This document shows, piece by piece, positions 1 to 13,664 of a DNA stretch of 13,664 nt. The DNA lies in the UHGV virus genome UHGV-0143428, one strand, 5' to 3'. The notes under the pieces were generated by a model. The model saw only the letters and a program-made list of their open reading frames with translations, was not told where the DNA came from and ran no database searches. Within the stretch, counting starts at the first letter, position 1, and the number at the start of each line of letters is the position of its first letter. Both the position numbers and the translations under genes were made by a program. This stretch comes from a virus.

Positions 1-48
1 CGAGATAGGCTCCGGTCTCGTGGGCTCGGAGATGTGTATAAGAGACAG
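1..48. other. Illumina Nextera P7-side adapter (non-biological contig-end contamination)
   Basis: Bases 1-6 CGAGAT (end of P7), 7-14 AGGCTCCG (8-nt i7 index position; as recalled the reverse complement of Nextera index N720 CGGAGCCT), 15-29 GTCTCGTGGGCTCGG, 30-48 AGATGTGTATAAGAGACAG (Tn5 mosaic end). Genomic sequence begins at base 49. Confidence 0.9.
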
Positions 49-50
49 GG

Positions 51-80
51 CTAGGGAAGGCTAACCTTCCCTAGTTTTTT
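51..80. terminator. Perfect 10-bp inverted repeat (CTAGGGAAGG-ctaa-CCTTCCCTAG) plus T6, immediately downstream of the 355-aa gene stop; terminator-like hairpin
   Basis: Stem 51-60 / 65-74, loop 61-64, T-run 75-80 on the + strand. On the minus strand the U-run side would lie in the adapter-truncated region, so its function for the minus-strand operon cannot be confirmed. Confidence 0.4.
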
Positions 81-81
81 A

Positions 82-1149
82 TTAGATAAGATCTTCCTCA
101 TCATGATCAAAGCCATACTGTAGAGCTTCAGATAGCTCAATTTGCTTATTTAAGTGTAGATTCACTCGAACAGCAATCCATTTAGCTGGACTTCCCATAC
201 CTGCTATATCCCCTATAGCAGCATTTCTTATCATTGCAGCTCCCCAAGAGTCCTCCCTTTGATAATGTGGATACTCTGCCAAAATTGATTTCGCAGCTTC
301 AATGAACCCTTCTTTATTCATCCCAGGGCGGCGCTCGAAATACCATGAATCATTTAACGCTATATCAATTCTAGGAACATATCGCCCAATTATGTTGTCA
401 TACACTACTGAATGAATTGAACCATGATCGCCATAAATAGCGACATCACTTCCACCAATATTTTGATGCAATTCTCTCTCAATAACATCAATATATCCGG
501 ACTGTCCATTTTCACGGCAAAAATTTGTAACTGAACTAGGGAAGCTTGTTGCTAGCACACTAATTATGGCTTCAGGAATCTCAGTTCTAATCTGATTAAT
601 CGAATTTATTGCTGCAGCTGTTATAGCAGATACATTCCCTCTAATGTAGCCCAAATCTATGAAAACTATGGCATTTTCTGGAGAGTTCATCGATACTAGT
701 GACGTCAGGGTTTTATTAATGTCTGTATTTAGATTTCTAATTCTAAATGCAATTGAACCTTTAAGTTCCTCTAAAACCCTGGCTTGGATAGATATATCTC
801 TAAGTTTTGCTGAATCCGGCATCTGGACTACTGGAATAATATTATCATTTCTGGAACAAAACTCTATCCAGTTTTTAAAACCATTCTCAGGAGAGAGTAG
901 TTCGAAGCTTGACGCGCAATGATGAGAATTATCCTTTGTGACATCCAAAATAAATGGGAGATTACTCATCACTTCTAAACTTTTATCTAACGATACCTGT
1001 ATTTCTTCCGAGCGAGGCCATTTCCCCAAAGAAATTAAAGGTAATATTTTTTTCTTATTCTCATATGATAAATTATTCAGTCCGGTCATTTCTGCTGATC
1101 GTGTTCTTAGGGCTGGATAGTATGAGTAATTTTCAAAATATACTTTCAT
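82..1149 (-). CDS. Hypothetical 355-aa soluble protein, distal gene of the hotspot cassette; candidate P4 beta-type protein (unverified)
   Basis: Uninterrupted 355-codon ORF with a GGAGG RBS about 11 nt upstream of the ATG. The start lies 2 nt after the stop of the upstream 133-aa gene (TAA-AT-ATG), indicating translational coupling. About 37% GC versus about 55-60% in psu/alpha. No Walker A or other motif I can recognise by eye. It sits where P4 carries gop-beta-cII, between cos and int. Confidence 0.7.
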   Translation of the reverse strand: MKVYFENYSYYPALRTRSAEMTGLNNLSYENKKKILPLISLGKWPRSEEIQVSLDKSLEVMSNLPFILDVTKDNSHHCASSFELLSPENGFKNWIEFCSRNDNIIPVVQMPDSAKLRDISIQARVLEELKGSIAFRIRNLNTDINKTLTSLVSMNSPENAIVFIDLGYIRGNVSAITAAAINSINQIRTEIPEAIISVLATSFPSSVTNFCRENGQSGYIDVIERELHQNIGGSDVAIYGDHGSIHSVVYDNIIGRYVPRIDIALNDSWYFERRPGMNKEGFIEAAKSILAEYPHYQREDSWGAAMIRNAAIGDIAGMGSPAKWIAVRVNLHLNKQIELSEALQYGFDHDEEDLI

Positions 1150-1151
1150 AT

Positions 1152-1553
1152 TTAATTAGCCTCCGAATCGATATTTTCTGGTCGGCTTGCTGTTCTTGGC
1201 ATAGCGTTAATTTGGGGGTTCTGAGTAGCAAGATAAGCAGCTATACTTTCCATCTTCTCTTTCTGTTCTGAAGTTCTTGCAAGTTCTTTAATCAATTCTT
1301 TGTTTTCAGCCATCAAGTTTTGATTGGATTCATTATGACTCTTGATTACCTCCATATTACTTTTTATAACATTCGTGTGGTTGTTGCTAATTGCTTTAAT
1401 CGTTCTGTGTGTAAACCATCCAATAAGTAAAGCAGCTAACCATCCAGAACAAACGAGCAACCATTGTGAAATATCTTGGTTGCGGATGAAGCTAGTAGCA
1501 ATAGTGATTATGGTCCCAACAACGCCAATTAATCCATATACATGATTCAGCAT
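1152..1553 (-). CDS. 133-aa small membrane protein (two N-terminal TM helices plus charged coiled-coil tail); candidate toxin/effector of the hotspot cassette, possibly gop-type (unverified)
   Basis: Hydrophobic segments at about residues 6-23 (YGLIGVVGTIITIATSFI) and 31-47 (WLLVCSGWLAALLIGWF), followed by a K/E/N-rich helical tail. It is the first gene after cos, transcribed away from cos, and is AT-rich like its partner. Confidence 0.6.
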   Translation of the reverse strand: MLNHVYGLIGVVGTIITIATSFIRNQDISQWLLVCSGWLAALLIGWFTHRTIKAISNNHTNVIKSNMEVIKSHNESNQNLMAENKELIKELARTSEQKEKMESIAAYLATQNPQINAMPRTASRPENIDSEAN

Positions 1554-1780
1554 CCTTTAACTCTCTCATGCCACGAATTCTTAAGGATCTTGCGACACTG
1601 ACAAGAACCACCTTACATCAATCTATTTTTTGCATATTTTTCAGGATAGTGCCATCAAAAAAGACAGTTTTGGACCATAGGCCATAGATTTTCTTCATTA
1701 TGCTCCAATGTATTAACGAGGTATGTACTGAAGGCACTTTGACTACACAAATAATTAACTAACTTGTCGGTTTGCGCGCG

Positions 1781-1799
1781 GTGCTTTCCCCGCCTCGCC
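1781..1799. other. cos site: P2/P4-type 19-nt cohesive end sequence
   Basis: GTGCTTTCCCCGCCTCGCC at 1781-1799 is the reverse complement of GGCGAGGCGGGGAAAGCAC, the cohesive end of P2/186/P4 as I recall it. It is located just beyond the psu stop, as in P4. Confidence 0.8.
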
Positions 1800-1900
1800 C
1801 GCCCGCTTTGCGGGGCGGTTTTAATGCAGTTGCACTGACACGCTCAGACCGCGCCGGGAATGGCGCGGTTTGCAGAAAATGAGGCAGGAAAACGCATGCA

Positions 1901-1934
1901 AAGCCATGCACCTTATCGATGCATGGCTTTTTTC
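1901..1934. terminator. Intrinsic-terminator-like hairpin between psu stop and cos
   Basis: AAGCCATGCA (1901-1910), 9-nt loop, TGCATGGCTT (1920-1929), then a T-run on the + strand. It lies about 30 bp downstream of the psu stop codon (1965) on the opposite strand, so it is possibly bidirectional. Confidence 0.45.
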
Positions 1935-1964
1935 AGTAAAAACAGGCGGATTTTTCGGGGAGTT

Positions 1965-2537
1965 TTACACAGACTGACGTGATGCCAGTTCTGCACTTTT
2001 ACGCGAAAAAATCATGTTCTGCGCAGGGGTGAATTTTTCACGGCTGTCATCCACCGAAGCCGCGTCAGGCCTGAATCCGATGGTCGTTAAAATGTCGCTA
2101 TCCTGTGCGGAATAATTAATTTTTTCCCCCTTCGCAAGCCAGGACAGAAGGGCTTCACGCAGGGCATCTGTGGCACGCTGTATGGCACAGTTTCGGGCAA
2201 TGGCCGTCAGCTCACTGTAGCCCATCAGCTCCGGTGCCAGTGCGGCCGCCAGTGCTGTGCCGTGCTGCTGCATAAAATCATTCAGCCGCTCGCGGATGCT
2301 GATGTGCTGAACGGCTTCATGCGAACGAATATAACGACCGGCGGCCTGATTCACCTGCCATTTTCTGACTTCGATAATATTGCGTAATTCGTCCAGGCGA
2401 CTGACGTTTCTGCCTTCTCCTGACAGAAGCCGCAGATATTCCTGTTCGGCCGCTGCCAGCTCATTTTTGCGTTGCAGCCATGCTGCTTTGTTATTCTGAC
2501 AGGTGTCAAAGGCCTGCTGTAAGGCTGTGCTTTCCAT
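1965..2537 (-). CDS. psu: Psu, polarity suppression / capsid decoration protein (P4-type)
   Basis: 190-aa ORF starting MESTALQQAFDTCQNNK. Length and N-terminus match my recollection of P4 Psu. It is the last gene of the sid-delta-psu operon, adjacent to cos. Confidence 0.85.
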   Translation of the reverse strand: MESTALQQAFDTCQNNKAAWLQRKNELAAAEQEYLRLLSGEGRNVSRLDELRNIIEVRKWQVNQAAGRYIRSHEAVQHISIRERLNDFMQQHGTALAAALAPELMGYSELTAIARNCAIQRATDALREALLSWLAKGEKINYSAQDSDILTTIGFRPDAASVDDSREKFTPAQNMIFSRKSAELASRQSV

Positions 2538-2610
2538 CGTTATCTCTTTCTCATCATGCTGAAGAATAAAAATACGGTGTGCGGCGACGGCCGGTGTTAA
2601 CCGGCAGCCC

Positions 2611-3111
2611 TCATTCCAGACGCAGCGAATATGATTGTGTTTTTAACCGTACTGGCGGCAGTTCCTGTTTTTCATGCAGGCGTTCTGCCAGTTCGTCCGG
2701 CGTGACCGGGCGGACAATGAAGCGGTTGATGGTCTGAAGCGTTTTAAACACCAGACCACAGCCCGGATCCGTGCACACATAAAAACGCTCGGTGACTTCC
2801 TGAGACAGACGCCGCGATGTTCTTGACAGTGCAAGGCCTTTACATCTCCGACAACAATATCCGGTAACAAGCATTCTTTTCGGGCGTTTCATACCGCAGG
2901 AGGCTGACGTCAGTGAATCGCGGTATCTCTGTTTGCCTGAAATGTATTCCATTCCTGAATCTTTACTGTCAGAGAAAAAGCTTTCACTCGCTTCAAATGT
3001 CGCAGAGCAATAAATATTCCGGCACTGTGCAATCATTATCTTGGTGCCATCGTCCATGAAATGTGCGCGACGGGTGTGAGCAACATGTCCACACGACGGA
3101 CAGTAAATCAT
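2611..3111 (-). CDS. delta: Delta, late-gene transcriptional activator (tandem Ogr-type zinc-finger protein)
   Basis: 166 aa. Two Ogr-like Cys4 units (CPSCGH...CRNIYC near the N-terminus, and CCRRCKG...CTDPGC in the second half). Its start overlaps the sid stop (ATGA). Length matches P4 Delta as recalled. Confidence 0.85.
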   Translation of the reverse strand: MIYCPSCGHVAHTRRAHFMDDGTKIMIAQCRNIYCSATFEASESFFSDSKDSGMEYISGKQRYRDSLTSASCGMKRPKRMLVTGYCCRRCKGLALSRTSRRLSQEVTERFYVCTDPGCGLVFKTLQTINRFIVRPVTPDELAERLHEKQELPPVRLKTQSYSLRLE

Positions 3112-3842
3112 GACAGCAGCCCTCTGGCCTTAAGCTCTGCTCCCTGCTGGTCTATTTTGTCCTGCCACACCTTGCGCTGTGCCGGTGTGCCTGCCACCTC
3201 ATAATCCATGTGCGGGAGTGTTGCCGCTGACAGTCCGGTCAGCCGGAGAACCGGCTCGCCGGTGAGGCTGATTTGCATCTGTTTAATTTTCTGTTCCAGC
3301 GATGATTTCACCTGCTGCATGACAGCCTTTTCCGGTGCGACGTAGCCCTGATGGCCGGTGGTGTTGGCGAGCGGATTTTCCTGTACCAGAATGCTCAGAT
3401 GCATTGCCCGGACAAGCGCCTCACAGGTTTCATTCAGGGCGTGTTCCAGCTCATGCTCTGCATACAGACTCAGAAGGTGATGATGTGCCTTCCGGTAGGC
3501 GGTGGCCGTGCTGTCACACGCCCCTTTCAGGCGTTCACGTTCGAAATTCAGCACCACGGCCAGATTGTCATATTCCTGTACCAGCTCCCGGCGTGCCACG
3601 CGCTCAATGTGGCGCTGTTTCAGCTCGTCGCTCAGGACACCACCGGCTGCACGAAAGGCCGTGCGCCAGTCGTCAGCGTCGTTTCCGTCGGCCTGCGCCA
3701 GCGCATTTTTTTCCTGCTCTGCCCGTTCAATGGCCGTGACGGTCTCATCCATCAGGCGGGCGTTCTCAAGATGGGCGGCTCTGGCCTTTTCCAGTTGTGC
3801 CAGTGCGGGTTGCAGATATTCAGGGATAGTGTGGTCAGACAT
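3108..3842 (-). CDS. sid: Sid, capsid size-determination (external scaffold) protein
   Basis: The ORF is open from 3860, but the GAGGAG RBS sits 8 nt upstream of the internal ATG at 3842 (MSDHTIPEYL...), giving 244 aa, the P4 Sid length as recalled. It is a helical, Q/E/A-rich protein and the first gene of the late operon. Confidence 0.85.
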   Translation of the reverse strand: MSDHTIPEYLQPALAQLEKARAAHLENARLMDETVTAIERAEQEKNALAQADGNDADDWRTAFRAAGGVLSDELKQRHIERVARRELVQEYDNLAVVLNFERERLKGACDSTATAYRKAHHHLLSLYAEHELEHALNETCEALVRAMHLSILVQENPLANTTGHQGYVAPEKAVMQQVKSSLEQKIKQMQISLTGEPVLRLTGLSAATLPHMDYEVAGTPAQRKVWQDKIDQQGAELKARGLLS

Positions 3843-3914
3843 TTTCCGGCTCCTCGTCACTTCAGGTTAAGAAAATTGTGACGTACACCGGACAACAACA
3901 CGACGCATTGCAGA

Positions 3915-3932
3915 TGTGCCAGCCCTGACACA
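3915..3932 (-). promoter_or_regulatory. Candidate Delta/Ogr binding dyad (TGT-N12-ACA) of the sid late promoter
   Basis: TGTGCCAGCCCTGACACA. Its centre is about 80 bp upstream of the sid ATG, which would place a transcription start about 25 nt upstream of the ATG if the dyad is centred at -55, as in P2/P4 late promoters. The motif is short and could occur by chance. Confidence 0.3.
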
Positions 3933-4011
3933 GGAGACTCATCCTCAGACCGGCAAGCCAGGAAAAGGTCGCAGGAAAAACCGGCTTACTGTTTGTTTTT
4001 TTATATTTTAC

Positions 4012-4116
4012 TGTTCACCTCTGTTCACCTTAATAAAAAAGATAAGTAATACAGTAAGTTAAAGGGTGAACAATCGCAGTAATGACTGTTCACCGTCTGT
4101 TCACCACTGTTCACCC
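4012..4116. repeat. Iteron cluster (TGTTCACC octamers), ori-like alpha-protein binding region
   Basis: Direct copies of TGTTCACC at 4012, 4022, 4087, 4098 and 4109, and one inverted copy (GGTGAACA) at 4065. Flanked by AT-rich tracts. P4 alpha binds iterons of this type in ori and crr (recalled). Confidence 0.75.
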
Positions 4117-4219
4117 GTTGATGGGCTTTTTGTGCTGTTTACTACTGTTTGTTTTTATTAATTCGCCGGGAATGAATAAGAAGAAACGATTTGTATTTCA
4201 CTATAAAAATTACAAATTG

Positions 4220-4249
4220 CTTTAAGTGGCTTTAAATGACTTTAAGTGG
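4220..4249 (+). promoter_or_regulatory. Helically phased triple CTTTAA repeat / duplicated TTTAAGTGG upstream of vis (candidate operator/promoter element)
   Basis: CTTTAA at 4220, 4230 and 4240 (exact 10-bp phasing). TTTAAGTGG at 4221-4229 and 4241-4249. It is located about 150 bp upstream of the vis start in an AT-rich region. Confidence 0.35.
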
Positions 4250-4394
4250 AGATGAACAAAAAACACACAGCCATTGTAAGGCAGCCTGAACAAATCCCCC
4301 CTGTTGCGTCTGCTGAAAATATTCACAAAATAAAGCGCTACCCGAAGCCGGACGGACTTATCCGGTGCTGTATGGACATTAACGAGGTAGCCCG

Positions 4395-4661
4395 ATGCAA
4401 GCTGTTTTTTCTTCCCCGTCTCCCGCCCCAGTGACGCCACTGATGCCGCTGCCGGACATCACGCAGGAGCGTTTTTTACGTCTGCCGGAAGTGATGCACC
4501 TGTGCGGCCTGTCACGCTCGACCATCTACGAACTCATCCGTAAGGGGGAATTTCCGCCGCAGGTGAGTCTTGGCGGTAAAAATGTGGCCTGGCTGCACTC
4601 TGAAGTCACCGCATGGATGGCCGGGCGCATTGCCGGACGCAAACGGGGGTACGACGCATGA
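4395..4661 (+). CDS. vis: Vis/AlpA-family excisionase-type transcriptional regulator
   Basis: 88-aa ORF with the AlpA-family signature ([32 protein letters not shown]). GAGGT RBS 8 nt upstream of the ATG at 4395. An internal start at MPLPD cannot be excluded. Confidence 0.75.
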
Positions 4662-5059
4662 TGATGCCCGCTCTGCAAAAACTCCCTTTTTCTGGCTTGC
4701 CTTTTTCCGGCATTTGCGGATATAGTTTTTCCGCTGCCGCAAAATCGGCAGCCGGGCGTGAGAACCCGAGCAATTCACAGGCGACATATGACGCGCCACG
4801 CGTCTTTTTTTGTGTCGCAATCAATGCCACAGAGCGCCAGATTATGGTGTGGTGTGTGGTCAGTCGTGCAGATGGCATTCCGTGCATCCTGCCCGCGTCC
4901 GCTCATTATGCCGCAGAGTCAATGGTAGCTCAGGCGGGGCAGCCTCCGGGCTGGCCGGTATCCGTTAGAGCCGGTATTCTCACCCCCGTCTGGGCTATCG
5001 CCATCGAGCGTGAGAACTCCGGCGATAGCGTTATTTGCTATTCACAGGAGGCTGCCATC

Positions 5060-5257
5060 ATGGCTACAACCCTTACCCCCTCACACCCTGAATTTGTCTT
5101 TGTGTTTGCGGCTGTCCGTCGCGCAGACCGTCATCCCCGTATCTGTATGCTTCGCACCGTCGCCGGTGATGAACGCAGTGCCCGCCGTTCCCTTGTCCGT
5201 GACTATGTGCTCTCCCTTGCTGCCCGTCTGCCGGTGGTGGAGGTGTCCCGTGCGTAA
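5060..5257 (+). CDS. Small hypothetical protein (65 aa) of the leftward operon, translationally coupled to the epsilon-like gene
   Basis: An internal ATG at 5060 within the long 4613-5257 reading frame is preceded by AGGAGG 7 nt upstream. The stop overlaps the GTG start of the next gene. The upstream part of the long ORF is more likely RNA/leader. Confidence 0.4.
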
Positions 5258-5537
5258 TAAAAAAGCCCCTCAGACCGTCTCAGCGCGTCATGACGCCCGT
5301 GAACACCTCAGCATTGAGGCTTACCATAAGCTCAACCGCGCCAGCGCCGTATCCCGGTTTGTTGGGGGTGATTTGATTCACCGTGAACTCTCCGGCCTGC
5401 ATCAGCTCTACATTCCGCATATTTTCAGCTACCTGAATGAAGATATTGATTTTGTGCTGAATGAGCTGAAAGCCAAAGGCCTGTGCCGCGATTTTCTCGC
5501 CCAGCAGAAAGACCGGGGAGACAGGACGCATGTTTGA
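5250..5537 (+). CDS. Epsilon-like protein (P2-derepression factor position), about 95 aa, GTG start
   Basis: GTG at 5250 preceded by GGAGGTG 5-6 nt upstream, in frame through the stop at 5535-5537, which overlaps the ATG of the orf151-like gene. Size and position relative to orf151/alpha match P4 epsilon as recalled; the sequence identity is not verified. Confidence 0.5.
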
Positions 5538-5985
5538 TTTTCCCCAGCCCGGTGAGATTTACCGTTCTGCCGGTTTTCCCGATGTGGCCGTGGTCGGCAT
5601 TCTGGAAGACGGTATTCCGTGGGAAATGCCGTACCGCTGCCCGGACATTGTCTGGAACCCGTACCGCCGTAAATTCAGTATCCTTGTGCGTATCCTCGCT
5701 GACGGACGCACCACAGACATCCCGCTGGGGCGTTTTCTGCGGGAATTTACCTGTGACCGTCCTGACCTGTTTAAACGCAGCCCCGTAAACCGGCATTCGG
5801 TACTGAAAGAAATGGCCGGAGACCCGGAATTACAGAAATGGCGGGAAAAATATCTGGATATTTACCCGCAGGACACTGTTCCGGTCAGCCGGGCAGCACC
5901 GGTGGCGCGGGAATGGCGGGAAATTCCCCGCACGGAGCCTGACCCGGAAACCACCCCGGATAACAGTTACCGCAATTATCTGTAA
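5530..5985 (+). CDS. orf151-like protein (151 aa) of the alpha operon
   Basis: Exactly 151 codons. Its ATG overlaps the upstream gene's stop. It lies upstream of alpha, as does P4 orf151. Confidence 0.65.
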   Translation: MFDFPQPGEIYRSAGFPDVAVVGILEDGIPWEMPYRCPDIVWNPYRRKFSILVRILADGRTTDIPLGRFLREFTCDRPDLFKRSPVNRHSVLKEMAGDPELQKWREKYLDIYPQDTVPVSRAAPVAREWREIPRTEPDPETTPDNSYRNYL

Positions 5986-6120
5986 TTAAAAAACGACCCC
6001 CGAAAAATTAAATGTGCGTATTCGCGCAGGGATACGCACGTCTTCAGGAGACGCAGATATGCCTTATCAGTTAATGCAACCGGCACGGAATGCAGTCATC
6101 TGTCACAGGGAGAAAAGCAA

Positions 6121-6441
6121 ATGAAAACACCCTTACCGCCCGTCTTACGCGCTGCCCTTTACCGTCGCGCTGTCGCCTGTGCCTGGCTGACCGTGTGCGA
6201 ACGTCAGCACCGCTACCCGCATCTCACCCTTGAATCACTGGAGGCGGCCATCGCCGCTGAGCTGGAAGGCTTTTATCTGCGCCAGCACGGTGAGGAAAAA
6301 GGGCGCCAGATAGCCTGTGCCCTGCTGGAAGATTTAATGGAATCCGGCCCCCTGAAGGCCGCGCCGTCGCTGTCCTTTCTCGGGCTGGTTGTGATGGATG
6401 AACTCTGTGCCCGTCACATAAAAGCGCCGGTACTGCACTGA
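6121..6441 (+). CDS. Hypothetical 106-aa protein immediately upstream of alpha
   Basis: ORF with a GGGAGA RBS, ending 14 bp before the alpha start. Preceded by a 21-codon upstream ORF whose TGA overlaps its ATG. Confidence 0.55.
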
Positions 6442-6455
6442 AGGAGAACAACACC

Positions 6456-8789
6456 ATGAAAATGAACGTAACCGCCACCGTCAGCCATGCGCTCGGCCAC
6501 TGGCCGCGTATTCTCCCGGCGCTGGGGATTCAGGTGCTGAAGAACCGTCATCAGCCCTGTCCGGTCTGTGGCGGGAGTGACCGTTTCCGTTTTGATGACA
6601 GGGAGGGGCGCGGCACCTGGTACTGCAATCAGTGTGGTGCCGGTGACGGCCTGAAACTGGTTGAAAAGGTGTTTGGTGTTTCCCCGTCCGACGCGGCCGC
6701 AAAGGTGGCTGCCGTGACCGGCAGCCTGCCACCGGCTGACCCGGCAGTGACGACCGCCGCCGGTGCTGAAACAGACGCTGCCCGGAAGAACGCCGCCGCA
6801 CTGGCACAAACCCTGATGGCGAAAACCCGTCCCGGAACCGGTAACGCCTACCTGACCCGCAAGGGCTTTCCCGGCCGGGAATGCCGGATGCTGACCGGCA
6901 CACACAGAGCCGGTGGCGTGAGCTGGCGCGCCGGTGACCTTGTGGTGCCACTGTATGACGACAGCGGCGAACTGGTTAACCTTCAGTTAATCAGTGCTGA
7001 CGGCCGTAAGCGCACCCTGAAAGGCGGGCAGGTCAGGGGCACCTGTCACATCCTTGAAGGACAGAATCAGGCCGGAAAACGTCTGTGGATAGCGGAGGGA
7101 TACGCGACCGCACTTACCGTGCATCACCTGACCGGTGAAACGGTGATGGTGGCGCTTTCTTCCGTGAACCTCCTTTCTCTGGCCAGCCTTGCCCGGCAGA
7201 AGCATCCGGCCTGTCAGATTGTCCTTGCCGCAGACCGTGACCTCAGCGGTGACGGCCAGAAAAAAGCCGCCGCAGCCGCAGATGCGTGTGAGGGCGTTGT
7301 TGCCCTGCCGCCGGTCTTCGGTGACTGGAATGATGCCTTCACGCAGTACGGCAGGGAGGCCACCCGTAAGGCCATTTATGATGCCATCCGGCCACCGGCT
7401 GAAAGCCCGTTCGACACCATGAGCGAAGCGGAGTTTTCCGCCATGAGTACCAGCGAAAAGGCCATGCGTATCTATGAGCATTACGGCGAGGCGCTCGCGG
7501 TCGATGCCAACGGCCAGCTTCTGTCCCGCTATGAAAATGGTGTCTGGAAGGTGCTGCCACCACAGGACTTTGCCCGGGATGTGGCCGGGCTGTTTCAGCG
7601 TCTGCGCGCGCCGTTCTCCTCCGGGAAGGTGGCCTCCGTGGTGGACACCCTGAAGCTGATTATTCCGCAGCAGGAAGCCCCCTCCCGCCGCCTGATTGGC
7701 TTTCGTAACGGCGTGCTCGACACGCAGAACGGCACGTTCCACCCGCACAGTCCGTCACACTGGATGCGCACCCTGTGCGATGTGGATTTCACCCCGCCGG
7801 TGGACGGTGAAACGCTGGAGACCCACGCCCCCGCGTTCTGGCGCTGGCTTGACCGTGCCGCCGGTGGCCGTGCGGAAAAACGCGACGTGATTCTGGCCGC
7901 ACTGTTTATGGTGCTGGCAAACCGCTACGACTGGCAGCTCTTTCTGGAGGTGACCGGTCCCGGCGGCAGCGGCAAAAGTATCATGGCCGAAATAGCCACC
8001 CTGCTGGCCGGGGAGGATAACGCCACGTCGGCCACCATTGAGACGCTGGAATCCCCGCGTGAACGTGCCGCGTTAACTGGCTTCTCACTGATACGCCTGC
8101 CGGACCAGGAAAAATGGAGCGGCGACGGTGCCGGACTCAAGGCCATCACCGGCGGCGATGCGGTGTCCGTTGACCCGAAATACCGGGATGCGTACTCCAC
8201 GCATATCCCGGCGGTGATTCTGGCCGTGAACAATAACCCGATGCGCTTCACCGACCGCAGCGGCGGCGTGTCACGCCGGCGGGTGATTATTCACTTCCCG
8301 GAACAGATAGCCCCGCAGGAGCGCGACCCGCAGCTTAAGGACAAAATCACCCGCGAGCTGGCGGTCATCGTGCGTCACCTGATGCAGAAGTTCAGCGACC
8401 CGATGCTCGCCCGGTCACTGCTTCAGTCCCAGCAGAACTCAGACGAGGCGCTGAACATCAAACGGGATGCCGACCCGACGTTTGATTTTATCGGCTATCT
8501 GGAAACCCTGCCGCAGACCAGCGGCATGTATATGGGGAACGCCAGTATCATCCCGCGCAATTACCGTAAATACCTCTATCACGCCTATCTGGCCTACATG
8601 GAGGCAAACGGCTACCGGAATGTACTCAGTCTGAAAATGTTCGGGCTGGGGCTGCCGGTGATGCTGAAGGAATACGGACTGAATTACGAGAAGCGCCATA
8701 CCAAACAGGGGATACAGACCAACCTGACGCTGAAAGAGGAAAGCTACGGCGACTGGCTGCCAAAATGTGACGACCCTACAACAGCCTGA
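6456..8789 (+). CDS. alpha: Alpha protein: bifunctional primase-helicase with C-terminal origin-binding domain
   Basis: 777 aa, the P4 alpha length as recalled. N-terminal zinc motif CPVCGG...YCNQCG, TOPRIM-like EGYATALTV and LAADRD, Walker A GPGGSGKS at 7951-7974, and Walker-B-like acidic residues. AAGGAG RBS 8 nt upstream of the ATG. Confidence 0.9.
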   Translation: MKMNVTATVSHALGHWPRILPALGIQVLKNRHQPCPVCGGSDRFRFDDREGRGTWYCNQCGAGDGLKLVEKVFGVSPSDAAAKVAAVTGSLPPADPAVTTAAGAETDAARKNAAALAQTLMAKTRPGTGNAYLTRKGFPGRECRMLTGTHRAGGVSWRAGDLVVPLYDDSGELVNLQLISADGRKRTLKGGQVRGTCHILEGQNQAGKRLWIAEGYATALTVHHLTGETVMVALSSVNLLSLASLARQKHPACQIVLAADRDLSGDGQKKAAAAADACEGVVALPPVFGDWNDAFTQYGREATRKAIYDAIRPPAESPFDTMSEAEFSAMSTSEKAMRIYEHYGEALAVDANGQLLSRYENGVWKVLPPQDFARDVAGLFQRLRAPFSSGKVASVVDTLKLIIPQQEAPSRRLIGFRNGVLDTQNGTFHPHSPSHWMRTLCDVDFTPPVDGETLETHAPAFWRWLDRAAGGRAEKRDVILAALFMVLANRYDWQLFLEVTGPGGSGKSIMAEIATLLAGEDNATSATIETLESPRERAALTGFSLIRLPDQEKWSGDGAGLKAITGGDAVSVDPKYRDAYSTHIPAVILAVNNNPMRFTDRSGGVSRRRVIIHFPEQIAPQERDPQLKDKITRELAVIVRHLMQKFSDPMLARSLLQSQQNSDEALNIKRDADPTFDFIGYLETLPQTSGMYMGNASIIPRNYRKYLYHAYLAYMEANGYRNVLSLKMFGLGLPVMLKEYGLNYEKRHTKQGIQTNLTLKEESYGDWLPKCDDPTTA

Positions 8790-8837
8790 CCCACCTGACC
8801 GGCATCTGCCGGTCTTTTTTTATCCCGACATCCCCCG

Positions 8838-9115
8838 AAGGTGAACAATCCACTGTTCACCCTTCACCGTATATTCACCCGTTATCACACTGAAATTAAA
8901 AGAGAAAAACGAAAGGTGAACAGTGTGAACAATCAAATCAAAAAAAACTTTTTTCTTCCTGAGTGATTTCAGTGCGGAGGATTAATCACCGGTATGAGTC
9001 ACACCGGCAGAATGCCGGAGGTGAAGAATCGAATGTTCACCCTTCACCCATTATTCACCACCTATCACTCTGAAATAAAAGGAGAAAACAGAAAGGTGAA
9101 CAGTGTGAACAGTTC
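8838..9115. repeat. crr-like cis replication region: two ~97-bp direct repeats (about 85% identical, period 180 bp) each carrying several iterons and followed by an A-run/T-run block
   Basis: Repeat A at 8838-8934 and repeat B at 9018-9114. Each contains GGTGAACA, TGTTCACC, CTTCACC, ATTCACC and the terminal GAAAGGTGAACAGTGTGAACA. A7/T6 tracts follow at 8938-8954 and 9120-9136. Confidence 0.75.
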
Positions 9116-9326
9116 TTTCGAAAAAAAATTTTTTATGTGGATAAAAGATGCACTGGTTTGGATCCGAGCTACGGATCCAAACTTACTGATTAAAAATGAT
9201 TTAACTTTCCGATTTATTGATGGGCTGAAAATAGATTGGTCAGAAAAACAGTGGGGGCACAAAAGGGGGCATATTTCATTGTTGTGTTTTATTATTTGTT
9301 TTTTATCATTAACTTATTTTGATGTT

Positions 9327-9346
9327 TGAGTCCGGCCTTCGCACCA
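9327..9346 (+). other. att core: 20-bp copy of a tRNA 3' end (T-arm/acceptor/CCA), tRNA-Leu (leuX)-like
   Basis: TGAGTCCGGCCTTCGCACCA matches, with one missing G, the 3' end of E. coli tRNA-Leu(CAA) as I recall it (..TTCGAGTCCGGCCTTCGGCACCA). Upstream sequence is AT-rich and not tRNA-like, so this is a core repeat (attR-type) rather than a full tRNA gene. Confidence 0.6.
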
Positions 9347-9531: not shown

Positions 9532-10797
9532 ATGGCATTAACAGATATCAAAGTCAGAGCAGCCAAGCCAACGGATAAGCAATATTAGCTGACTGATGGT
9601 GGCGGTATGCATCTGCTTGTCCATCCAAATGGTTCTAAGTACTGGCGTTTGCAGTACCGTTATGAGGGAAAGCAAAAAATGCTGGCACTTGGGGTTTATC
9701 CTGAAATCACACTAGCGGATGCCAGAGTACGTCGTGACGAGACGCGTAAGCTGCTTGCGAATGGCGTCGATCCGGGAGACAAAAAGAAAAATGATAAGGT
9801 TGAACAGAGTAAAGCACGAACCTTTAAAGAAGTCGCGATTGAGTGGCATGGCACCAATAAAAAGTGGTCTGAAGATCACGCCCATCGTGTGCTAAAAAGT
9901 CTTGAAGATAATCTTTTTGCAGCGCTTGGTGAACGTAATATCGCTGAGTTAAAAACTCGAGATTTATTAGCACCTATTAAGGCCGTAGAAATGTCTGGAC
10001 GTCTTGAAGTGGCCGCTCGTCTTCAGCAGCGCACTACAGCCATCATGCGCTATGCAGTGCAAAGTGGGTTAATTGATTATAACCCGGCACAAGAGATGGC
10101 TGGGGCGGTTGCTTCCTGTAATCGACAACATCGTCCCGCGCTTGAATTAAAGCGCATCCCTGAGTTGCTTACAAAAATAGATAGCTATACTGGTAGGCCG
10201 CTAACCCGATGGGCGATAGAACTCACTTTGCTGATCTTTATTCGGTCCAGTGAGCTGCGTTTTGCTCGTTGGTCAGAGATCGATTTCGAAGCGTCTATAT
10301 GGACTATCCCACCGGAGCGGGAGCCTATTCCTGGAGTGAAACATTCCCATAGAGGCTCAAAAATGCGTACAACGCATCTAGTGCCTCTTTCAACGCAAGC
10401 TCTTGCAATTTTAAAGCAGATAAAACAGTTTTATGGGGCCCATGACTTGATATTTATTGGTGATCACGATTCGCACAAACCCATGAGTGAGAATACGGTA
10501 AATAGTGCGTTACGGGTCATGGGGTATGATACAAAAGTAGAGGTTTGTGGTCATGGCTTTCGAACAATGGCCTGTAGTTCATTGGTCGAATCAGGTCTGT
10601 GGTCTCGTGATGCTGTTGAACGTCAGATGAGCCACATGGCGCGAAATTCAGTGAGGGCCGCGTATATCCATAAAGCAGAGCATCTGGAAGAACGGCGATT
10701 GATGCTACAGTGGTGGGCCGATTTTCTGGATGTAAACAGAGAAAGGTTTATCAGTCCATTTGAATATGCAAAGATTAATAATCCATTAAAACAGTAA
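9532..10797 (+). pseudogene. int: P4-family tyrosine integrase with an in-frame amber codon at codon 19 (N-terminally disrupted; 396-aa ORF remains from an internal Met)
   Basis: ATG at 9532 with RBS encodes MALTDIKVRAAKPTDKQY, then TAG at 9586-9588, then in the same frame LTDGGGMHLLVHPNGSKYW... This is the conserved P4-type integrase N-terminus interrupted by a stop. The downstream ORF 9607-10797 carries the integrase catalytic region (R..H..R..Y type C-terminus). Confidence 0.8.
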
Positions 10798-11197
10798 TCA
10801 TCCCGGGCAAATGCCCGGGAATTATTCTAGGATTATTTTCTTTGTTAAAAAAGACAAACGGTATTAACTGATGTATTTACTATTTACCGCTCCCTGCAGG
10901 GGGGATTATCAGAATCCGCGGTTATTCATTATTTATATACATTCAATAAAAAAGTAACCTCATAAAAAATCCTGTACTCACAGGGTGATGCGGGATAACT
11001 GACGTAAGGAGTGCTGCAGGGATTTGATGGTCCCTTGTGCTGATATGAATACGGATATTTTATACAGAATACTTTTCAGTACAAGCGACTGTATTACAGT
11101 CTGCCATATATGATTACCTGTGATCAGGAAGAATAAGTGGCTGAGGTTTCAAACTGTCTGCCGGTATATTCCTCTCTCCCTTAAAAACCATAACAGG

Positions 11198-12420
11198 TTA
11201 GTTATCTTCGTCTGTCAGCGGATTGAATGGCGGTATATTTTCAGTACAAATACCGGTCATCCACTGAAAAATACCTGCGAAATGACGGGCACTGATTTTT
11301 CTACTGACGGGCTGATGAGACGTTATGTCACTGGCGGTAATAATCAGTGGCACACTGTAGCCTCCCTGCACATGACCATAATGATGAACAGGATTGGCAC
11401 TGTCGCTGACCGACAGCCCAAGGCCAGAAAAGTAAAGCATGGCGAAATGACGTGAGTACCGGCGAAGGATACCATCAAGCTGGCCAAGAAAGTTATCCAG
11501 TTTACTGATGCTGGCGAGGTAACAGGCAATTTTTCGGGGATACTGCTCCAGGTAATTATTCGGCTAGGAGTTAAGGCTGTCACACGGATTTGGATGAGAA
11601 CCCATCATGTGCAGGAAAATTATCTTCGGAGAGGATGTATCCGCCAGCGCACGTTCTGTTTCCTGTAACAACAGTTTGTCATCTGTTTTACGGGAAGCGA
11701 AGCTGCCTTTCTTGAGGAAAGTGGCATGCTCCGCATCAGAAGCAATAACAGAGATGCGTGTGTCATGCTCCCCCAGTTTTCCTTGATTGGATATCCACCA
11801 TGTGCTGTATCCTGCTTTTGCTGCCAGCGCCACCACATTGTTGCCGGAATCAGGGTTCTGCTCATAGTCATAAATCAGTGTCCGGCTCAGGGAAGACACT
11901 GTACTGGAGGCTGTCGAGGTATAATCGTCAATAAATAAACCGGGTGCCGTATTCAGCCACGGTGTGGTTGGTACGGGATAGTCATACACTGACATATAAT
12001 CCCTGCGCACACTCTCACCAGTGACAATAACAATCGTATCATATAACGGTGCTCCCGGCTGGATTTTCCAGTTGTCAGCCCCGTGCTACTCAGTTGTTCA
12101 TAACGCTGCATTTCACGTAATGTGTCAGTTGTCCCCACAACTGTTCCTTTAACCATCCGCAATGGCCAACGGTTTACAGAGCATAATACGAATAGCCGTA
12201 GAGCCAGCCAGTTACGGTGGTCGCGATGGTGTGTCCGCCAGAAAATCACCACGAATACCAGAATCGCGGCACTGACCAGAAAATGATAAACAGGAAACAC
12301 GGGGCGGTTCACTTTGCTTTCTCCTGTAGTGTTTTCTGTAGGTTCTGAACCGGTTCTAGCGGGGTTGTGAGGCTGATGGCAATCGCCGGGCTCTTCCTGC
12401 ATGTTACACTGGTACTGCAA
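11198..12420 (-). pseudogene. Frameshifted sulfatase-family (phosphoethanolamine-transferase-like) membrane protein pseudogene
   Basis: Adjacent minus-strand ORFs in different frames: 11953-12420 contains a hydrophobic TM segment; 11564-12010 contains sulfatase-type motifs (RRDYMSVYDYPV, FLHMMGSHP); 11344-11583 and 11198-11440 continue in other frames. Boundaries are approximate. Confidence 0.5.
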
Positions 12421-12780
12421 GAGGGGGCCTTCGCTCCTCTGACATTACTCAGTATTTTCACTACTACACCCCATCTGCCATCCATAACAACCGATTCACC
12501 CCCTCGCGAGGCGTTGTTGCCCGTCACCCGGACAGACACCGTTATGGACTTCTCTTGTTGCACGATCGATCAATTGTTATGCATGCTGACACCACAACCC
12601 CGGTGGGTATGACCGATGCCTTTCTCACTCTCTTCCCGGTCATCGTCGGCCTTCCCCGTTATTGTGGCGTGTCAGCACCCTCGACGGCATTTCGATGGCT
12701 GCTCAGTGTTCACTCACGTTACGGCCCGCATAACCCGTTGACTTCCTGAAGAAGTCGTTTCAGGGAGAGATTCAGCCCTT

Positions 12781-13110
12781 TTGTTACCTCCTGGACCGCT
12801 TCTTGTCCTTCCAGTCGGAGCGAGAGTTAGCCGGGGCGGACTTTCACCGACGGAAAGATCGTGCATTTCAAGGCACACACAACAATATCTGCGAGCGTGC
12901 TATCCGTCCGGTCGTTATGGGACGAAAGGCCTGGTTGTTCGCTGGTTCACTGGTGGCCGGGAACCGCGCGGCACAGATAATGAGCCTTCTGGGAACCGCA
13001 GTCTGGAGCCACATGCTTGGCTGACGGACGTCCTGACGCGTCTGCCGGAGTGGCCGGAGGAGAGGTTGGCTGAGTTACTGCCTCTTGAGGGCTTTACCTT
13101 CTTCGGGTAA
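12781..13110 (+). mobile_element. IS66-family transposase 3' remnant (C-terminal about 100 codons, frameshifted, lacking the DDE domain)
   Basis: Frame 1 (12803-13024) reads NNICERAIRPVVMGRKAWLFAGSLVAGNRAAQIMSLLGTA; frame 2 (to 13110) reads PHAWLTDVLTRLPEWPEERLAELLPLEGF. Together these are the conserved IS66 TnpC C-terminal block, split by a frameshift near 12990-13020. No upstream catalytic region is present. Confidence 0.6.
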
Positions 13111-13614
13111 GTGATACCTGCCGTCAGGTGTTTGTGCACCGGGCCATAACCTGCAGTTGGGAATTGAACGCCTGACAACAGGAAATGAGCTAGAGCAGTA
13201 AACACGCGGGCTGACAATGGGTCAGAATATGAGTTAGCCCGGCGTTATTCCTGGGGTCAGTACTTCAGATCTAGCCTCCGGTACCAGACTAGCTAGCCCC
13301 TACGCAACCAAATAAATCAACCATCGTCAGAGTGCAATCGTTCATATACACTGTCGGTGATGCGCTAAAAAATGCGTTAATGTTGAGTTCCTCGAACCCT
13401 TACCAATTAAGGGACATAGCCAGATACGCAACTGGCTGATGCAAGCAGTCTAATGTCTTTAGATCCGCTGGCCTGCGGGCATGACAATGTCAAACAGTCA
13501 AAGATTGTGGCGTTGACGGTCAGTCTTGGGGACAAAAAAGCTCAGTATTCTCGTTGGCAACCAGATAATTTAACAGTTGATGCTGAAACGAAATAGGCAT
13601 CTTGGTTCTGTAAT

Positions 13615-13647
13615 GCCAGTCAGTTAAGCAACTGACTGGCTCTTTTT
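13615..13647 (+). terminator. Strong rho-independent terminator with no upstream ORF over 60 codons
   Basis: GCCAGTCAGTT (13615-13625), loop AAGC, AACTGACTGGC (13630-13640), then TCTTTTT (13641-13647). Confidence 0.6.
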
Positions 13648-13664
13648 CGGGGCTGTGGGGTATT

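Follow-up and report, generated by a model that had tools for sequence, protein, structure and literature searches.

Gop-beta-cII is an anti-phage system of the satellite phage P4, and we compare with it here a 13,664-nucleotide (nt) stretch of DNA, virus genome UHGV-0143428 (referred to in full as the window), in particular the two-gene cassette at its positions 82-1553. Gop is toxic if Beta is missing (Ghisotti 1990, as cited in PMC9122126), the cloned gop-beta-cII locus gives Escherichia coli protection from lambda and P1 that is probably due to abortive infection (Rousset 2022, PMC9122126), and the phage accessory gene orf184 triggers cell death via gop-beta-cII (Silas 2023, bioRxiv 10.1101/2023.04.06.535777). 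The system is treated as toxin-antitoxin-like and probably as an abortive-infection system located in the P4 hotspot (PMC9122126; bioRxiv 10.1101/2023.04.06.535777), where a 2024 survey found it as recurrent cargo (PMC11754643). The third protein of a second system, PD-lambda-2, has been described as 'related to a P4 phage antitoxin' (Vassallo 2022, PMC9519451); this protein, PD-lambda-2C, is dispensable for neutralising the toxin of that system and required for defence (PMC9519451). Our search of the literature found no paper giving the molecular mechanism of Gop-beta-cII, that is, how Beta neutralises Gop, what role cII plays or how the phage is sensed.

Identity and layout of the cassette

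Megablast against phage records aligned window positions 48-1799 with nt 1-1752 of phage P4 on the opposite strand (X51522 / NC_001609). Compared base by base, 1751 of these 1752 nt are identical, the sole mismatch being a C to G change at P4 position 459, and identity of this extent excludes chance. Beneath the match, the P4 record has gop, beta and a terminator, together with the end of cII. Beta is identical to P4 Beta at all 355 residues and Gop to P4 Gop at 132 of 133, the difference being N71K. Curated models agree: Beta matches Pfam PF14350 Beta_protein (E-value 4.3e-56, 191 bits against a cut-off of 27) and, end to end, PADLOC 'beta' (8.2e-188), while Gop matches PADLOC PDLC03001 'gop' end to end over residues 1-133 (4.3e-70). 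Judged by sequence, the cassette is almost certainly the gop-beta operon of P4. We found nothing that contradicts this identity, and the cassette is one already known, gop and beta being two of the three genes of the published anti-phage system. Taken as the P4 gop-beta operon in an E. coli prophage, which together with the convergent cII constitutes Gop-beta-cII, the locus is in our estimate correctly read with a probability of about 0.9.

The preliminary description of this DNA, made from the letters and their open reading frames (ORFs), had proposed a toxin- or abortive-infection-type module in the P4 hotspot or, alternatively, P4's own gop-beta pair. The two proposals prove to be the same thing, the published Gop-beta-cII. 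The searches that it suggested against P4 Gop, P4 Beta and the Pfam beta-protein family all returned matches, and its length arithmetic was sound: cos to att core spans 7547 bp, and the remaining 4077 bp of P4 have to hold gop, beta, cII, int and the att arm. What does not survive is any novelty it implied. The cassette is a correct rediscovery of an operon whose sequence dates from 1990 and whose place in an anti-phage system was shown in 2022.

Both ORFs, of 133 and 355 amino acids (aa), are present as the preliminary description gave them (Table 1). The stop codon of gop (TAA, 1154-1152) is followed by 2 nt and then by the ATG of beta (1149-1147), and this short gap, with the GGAGG described earlier, makes translational coupling of the two genes likely. 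The GC content of 82-1553 is 37.0% compared to 56.3% for 1965-8789, close to the 37% and 55-60% first estimated, and the same step is seen in a sliding profile. The difference suggests, by indirect evidence, that the cassette was acquired separately, which would be consistent with swapping of cargo at the cos boundary. The two genes are said to share one promoter. A sigma-70-like candidate upstream of gop may be that promoter; it came from a consensus scan in which matches were no more numerous than in shuffled sequence. At the other end, the P4 record labels the hairpin between the convergent beta and cII (P4 1720-1749) as a putative rho-independent terminator of cII, and a terminator scan gave a partial, terminator-like match at 66-49 on the minus strand.

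The single base difference from P4 lies at window position 1341, in codon 71 of gop on the minus strand, where the C-to-G change gives K71. At least 11 complete E. coli genomes carry the K71 allele at 100% identity, and N71 of the P4 reference may go back to a variant of the laboratory strain or to an error in the old sequence. The cassette as a whole is present in 39 of 5426 complete E. coli genomes, always in the chromosome, and at least 11 of these copies are 100% identical to it.

The left end of the window explains the missing third gene. The match to P4 begins only at base 48. Positions 1-47 consist of the mosaic end, CCGAGCCCACGAGAC, the index CGGAGCCT and ATCTCG, in which a script located an exact 34-nt Nextera string, and which we take to be Illumina Nextera adapter with its index. 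The contig ends here because of adapter contamination in the assembly, which cuts P4 at nt 1752, and the absence of cII and int is thus an assembly artefact. P4 1753-4077, which holds cII, int and the att arm, is not in the contig. As the P4 cII coding sequence is 1746-2540 on the minus strand, P4 1746-1752 corresponds to window 54-48, and the gene suspected to have been lost to the contig break is cII, whose last 7 nt remain before the adapter. In complete E. coli genomes with an identical cassette, a 264-aa cII of the sce7726 family follows; cII from one complete genome with the same cassette matches PADLOC 'cll' (3.2e-113) and NF033832 (2.5e-44), and a Pfam scan of cII gave no match. The gene order in E. 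coli S19-141 is tRNA-Leu, int, cII (sce7726 family), beta, gop, psu, delta, sid. The cII of this strain (3713-4507 of its locus) has an N-terminal RRADLAI...FEIKSD that by eye resembles a PD-(D/E)xK nuclease motif, which we note as a lead only.

Gop, Beta and the mechanism

The hydropathy profile of Gop (Kyte-Doolittle, 19-residue window) has two peaks, at residues ~5-23 (2.01) and ~28-49 (1.56), and in this respect, that is by hydropathy only, Gop has the transmembrane-like segments of a membrane-inserted small toxin, as the preliminary description had claimed. Its view of the tail as a charged coiled coil stands in part. The tail is helical with balanced charge (11 Lys/Arg and 11 Asp/Glu); for the coiled coil there are weak Pfam matches only (Taxilin and others, E 0.003-0.1, well under the cut-offs), which are only a sign of coiled-coil-like composition. 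No sequence relation of Gop to any named toxin family was found in Pfam or NCBIfam; the NCBIfam match to TIGR04402 is sub-threshold (19.9 bits against a cut-off of 70) and was dismissed.

Beta is soluble, as predicted earlier, with no hydrophobic segment (Kyte-Doolittle maximum 1.23). A homologue search returned 268 Beta-family proteins from Gamma- and Betaproteobacteria, of which 48, down to 42% identity, were aligned; the same alignment was the input for AlphaFold2. The resulting model is confident (predicted local distance difference test, pLDDT, 92.8; predicted template-modelling score, pTM, 0.91) and shows alternating strands and helices in a (beta/alpha)8 arrangement followed by a long C-terminal helix (321-352). 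We are confident in describing modelled Beta as a triosephosphate isomerase (TIM) barrel, a modest new result. There are 39 invariant positions in the alignment, with Arg, Asp, Glu, His or Lys at many of these (including R15, R17, E20, K32, D69, R170, R188, D241, H246, D262 and R273). Eighteen of the 39 are located at the C-terminal ends of the strands, where 9.7 are expected (p = 0.0017); the N-terminal face of the barrel shows no enrichment. The C-terminal strand ends are the substrate-binding face of TIM barrels, and from this placement the model suggests that Beta may be an enzyme or a ligand binder, beyond an antitoxin that binds Gop.

The helix outside the barrel carries invariant residues of its own (W324, I325, R328, V329, N330, H332 and Q336; window ~142-180, minus strand). 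In the model, the 324-336 stretch may make contact with another protein, such as Gop or cII.

The fold search proposed in the preliminary description, here Foldseek of the Beta model against the PDB, returned generic TIM barrels only (E >= 1.5e-3) and no specific enzyme family. The PDB sequence searches (Beta alone, a Beta profile and cII) gave nothing significant, NCBIfam has no family for Beta, and BFVD yielded a single uncharacterised protein, from a Gordonia phage (E 7e-13), and no annotated match. We considered Beta as a tRNA/DNA-guanine transglycosylase (TGT, DpdA or Cap10-like) and rejected this, there being no similarity beyond the generic TIM-barrel fold. The published relationship to PD-lambda-2 is confirmed by the match of Beta to PADLOC PD-Lambda-2_C (8.1e-14).

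Four distant loci were examined, from Pseudomonas aeruginosa, Methylibium petroleiphilum, Acinetobacter and Rhodocyclus tenuis. Each of them has a small ORF just upstream of Beta with tight spacing and a convergent cII-family gene downstream, and each small protein has two hydrophobic segments and a helical tail of variable length. A SGW(L/M/F)AA motif is common to Gop and the small proteins of Methylibium, Rhodocyclus and P. aeruginosa and is not found in that of Acinetobacter. PADLOC 'gop' matches the small proteins of P. aeruginosa (3e-8) and Methylibium (9e-10), the two to which that scan was applied; those of Acinetobacter and Rhodocyclus were compared by hydrophobic segments and alignment. 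P4-type cII is 42% identical to its counterpart in P. aeruginosa and 39% identical to that in Methylibium. From its recurrence in these four loci, the trio of Gop-like protein, Beta and convergent cII appears as a conserved unit in distant Proteobacteria and not a peculiarity of P4, which is again new here and modest.

The P. aeruginosa trio (GCA_040258005.1) is found between filamentous-phage-like genes (DUF2523, DUF5447) and a pair formed by a HigB-like toxin and a helix-turn-helix (HTH) protein, the flanking genes occupying 1-3721 and 7264-7859 of the locus. Two sister loci of this trio have Phage_Coat_B in a filamentous-phage-like neighbourhood. The HigB-like gene may not be there by coincidence, since PD-lambda-2 joins a HigB-like toxin with a Beta-family protein.

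For the published system we suggest the following scheme, the general toxin-antitoxin-like abortive-infection picture, which we regard as probably right. Gop would be a small protein that sits in the inner membrane with two transmembrane segments, has its coiled-coil tail in the cytoplasm and is lethal when unopposed. Beta, made from the same mRNA by coupled translation, would hold Gop harmless in uninfected cells. When a sensitive phage such as lambda or P1 infects, a phage product, for example orf184, would lift the neutralisation, and Gop would arrest or kill the cell before progeny are released; sister cells carrying the satellite would be protected. The toxicity of Gop without Beta, the protection against lambda and P1 and the cell death triggered by orf184 come from published work; in this scheme we infer the membrane as the target of Gop, the mode of neutralisation by Beta, the phage sensor and the role of cII.

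Several observations weigh against so simple a scheme. Classical type II antitoxins are small, have a DNA-binding domain (HTH, ribbon-helix-helix or AbrB) and are usually encoded upstream of the toxin. Beta is unlike them: it has 355 aa, is encoded downstream of gop, lacks a DNA-binding Pfam domain and is modelled as a TIM barrel whose 39 invariant residues are enriched at the catalytic face, and we rejected a classical type II toxin-antitoxin on these grounds. The placement of Gop in the membrane is a prediction from hydropathy. cII is beyond the contig end, and the window itself does not show the complete system in this strain. Abortive infection is proposed, not demonstrated, in the gop-beta-cII papers (PMC9122126; bioRxiv 10.1101/2023.04.06.535777). 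Lastly, simple stoichiometric neutralisation may be an incomplete picture, because PD-lambda-2C is not needed for neutralising and is needed for defence.

This last point, together with the confidently modelled barrel, the residues that are invariant among homologues down to 42% identity and gather at the strand ends, and the co-occurrence of Beta and cII in all four distant loci, leads to a different role for Beta, which we advance only tentatively. Beta would be an enzyme or a ligand-binding sensor, and Beta and cII would form a sensing or catalytic core that controls Gop as its membrane effector or anchor. With the same reserve, one can picture an ancient Gop-like/Beta/cII module of Beta- and Gammaproteobacteria that P4 has borrowed, in which a catalytic or ligand-sensing Beta, perhaps with cII, would recognise a signal from the phage and set the membrane toxin Gop free. 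However, Foldseek matched no specific enzyme family in the PDB, no solved structure is related by sequence, the conserved residues could instead serve protein-protein contacts, and the literature we found reports only the suppression of Gop toxicity by Beta. An enzymatic or sensory Beta would refine, and does not exclude, the toxin-antitoxin-like scheme preferred above. If true, Beta would have a new biochemical activity, there being no specifically related solved structure or characterised enzyme.

It is improbable that the main role of gop-beta is that of an addiction or stabilisation module, serving to retain P4 as prophage or plasmid, with defence as a side effect. P4 is able to persist as a plasmid, and the toxicity of Gop without Beta would suit such a role. 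Nevertheless, Beta does not have the architecture of a small, labile, DNA-binding antitoxin, the locus is one where many other defence systems alternate, and homologous trios are chromosomal in unrelated bacteria, where no genes of the P4 backbone were called in their flanks. Cloned together, the three genes give protection from lambda and P1 (PMC9122126), and a phage accessory protein triggers the system (bioRxiv 10.1101/2023.04.06.535777). Moreover, Rousset et al. replaced gop by a kanamycin-resistance (KanR) cassette and P4 still propagated (PMC9122126), which argues against an essential maintenance role. Layout and low GC alone would speak for an as yet undescribed toxin/immunity or abortive-infection cassette that just happens to sit in the P4 hotspot, and this reading is ruled out for practical purposes by the identity to P4 gop-beta at 1751 of 1752 nt and the end-to-end matches of both proteins to curated models.

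What remains of interest is the mechanism of a known system, for which the TIM-barrel Beta and the conserved three-gene layout give handles. Neither the barrel model nor the conservation of the trio alters the classification of the window.

The satellite and its surroundings

Window positions 1800-9346 (7547 bp) correspond to P4 11624-4078 with 99.3% identity and encode psu, delta, sid, orf88, epsilon, orf151, orf106 and alpha, whose proteins are 98.4-100% identical to those of P4. This block and the one containing gop-beta join at 1799/1800, the cos junction of the linear P4 record. The cassette is thereby located at the variable locus of P4, adjoining cos and psu, and as read from the alignments cos is the boundary between variable cargo and conserved satellite backbone. 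In many complete E. coli genomes the match to the window is confined to the part from ~1770 (cos) rightwards, at 98.5-98.8% identity, and gop-beta is missing; the aligned sequences show directly that cargo is replaced at the P4 hotspot.

The match to P4 ends at the attP core, and the DNA beyond 9346 is E. coli chromosome. On this basis the window is, as far as alignment can tell, an integrated P4-type prophage in an E. coli chromosome, and with a backbone identity of 99.3%, not 100%, it would be a natural P4-type prophage and not necessarily laboratory P4. The att core at the prophage-chromosome junction (9327-9345) is GAGTCCGGCCTTCGCACCA, one G short of the P4 attP core GAGTCCGGCCTTCGGCACCA, and an exact search of the window for the latter found nothing since the copy in the window lacks that G. 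The same junction is present at 100% identity in several complete genomes. There is no tRNA gene in the window. The chromosomal flank contains a second integrase, fragmented ORFs and the start of IS4, from which we conclude that the P4 prophage adjoins an older, decayed integrated element.

Table 1. Features of the window, listed from left to right (a point in the strand column marks a feature given without strand)
Feature	Position	Strand	Description
Adapter read-through	1-47	.	minus strand CTGTCTCTTATACACATCTCCGAGCCCACGAGAC + index CGGAGCCT + ATCTCG; not biological
cII 3' end	48-54	+	last 7 nt, TAG stop 52-54; P4 match
Hairpin	51-80	.	CTAGGGAAGG-ttag-CCTTCCCTAG; between convergent beta and cII; from sequence
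beta	82-1149	-	355 aa, soluble; published neutraliser of Gop toxicity; P4 match, Pfam, PADLOC
gop	1152-1553	-	133 aa; published toxic component; six-frame ORF list, P4 match, PADLOC
Ribosome-binding site of beta	1160-1164	-	GGAGG, within gop 3' end, 10 nt upstream of beta ATG; from sequence
Promoter candidate	1577-1604	-	sigma-70-like, TTGTCA-16 nt-AAGAAT, upstream of gop; consensus scan, 9/12 matches
cos region	1770-1846	.	matches P2-family cos regions
psu	1965-2537	-	P4 backbone gene, adjoining cos
Second tyrosine integrase	9607-10797		396 aa; chromosomal flank
Fragmented ORFs	~11560-12420		phosphoethanolamine transferase (RefSeq); chromosomal flank
109-aa ORF	12781-13110		transposase-like C-terminus; chromosomal flank
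Start of IS4			within chromosomal flank (9607-13664)

Comparison with known systems

Like the small membrane-protein toxins of abortive-infection and toxin-antitoxin systems, Gop is short, has two transmembrane-like segments and is toxic when unopposed; it differs from them in that its neutraliser is a large TIM-barrel protein and not an RNA or a small antitoxin. PD-lambda-2 shares with Gop-beta-cII a three-gene organisation, toxin-antitoxin-like abortive infection, activity against lambda and a Beta-family component (PMC9519451). The partners of that component are different, PD-lambda-2 having a HigB-like toxin and an Xre-peptidase fusion in place of Gop and cII, and its Beta-like protein does not neutralise the toxin, whereas P4 Beta is reported to suppress Gop toxicity. 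Of the Gop-beta-cII system itself, the window has two of the three components, which match their models end to end and occupy the same hotspot of the same satellite; the published system includes cII, of which the window retains the 7 nt before the adapter. With gop and beta of P4 (P4p01 and P4p02; NC_001609 / X51522; Ghisotti et al. 1990), the cassette has in common the 2-nt gap between the genes, the terminator hairpin and the position adjoining cos and psu, and the two are told apart by residue 71 of Gop, N71 in the P4 reference and K71 in the window.

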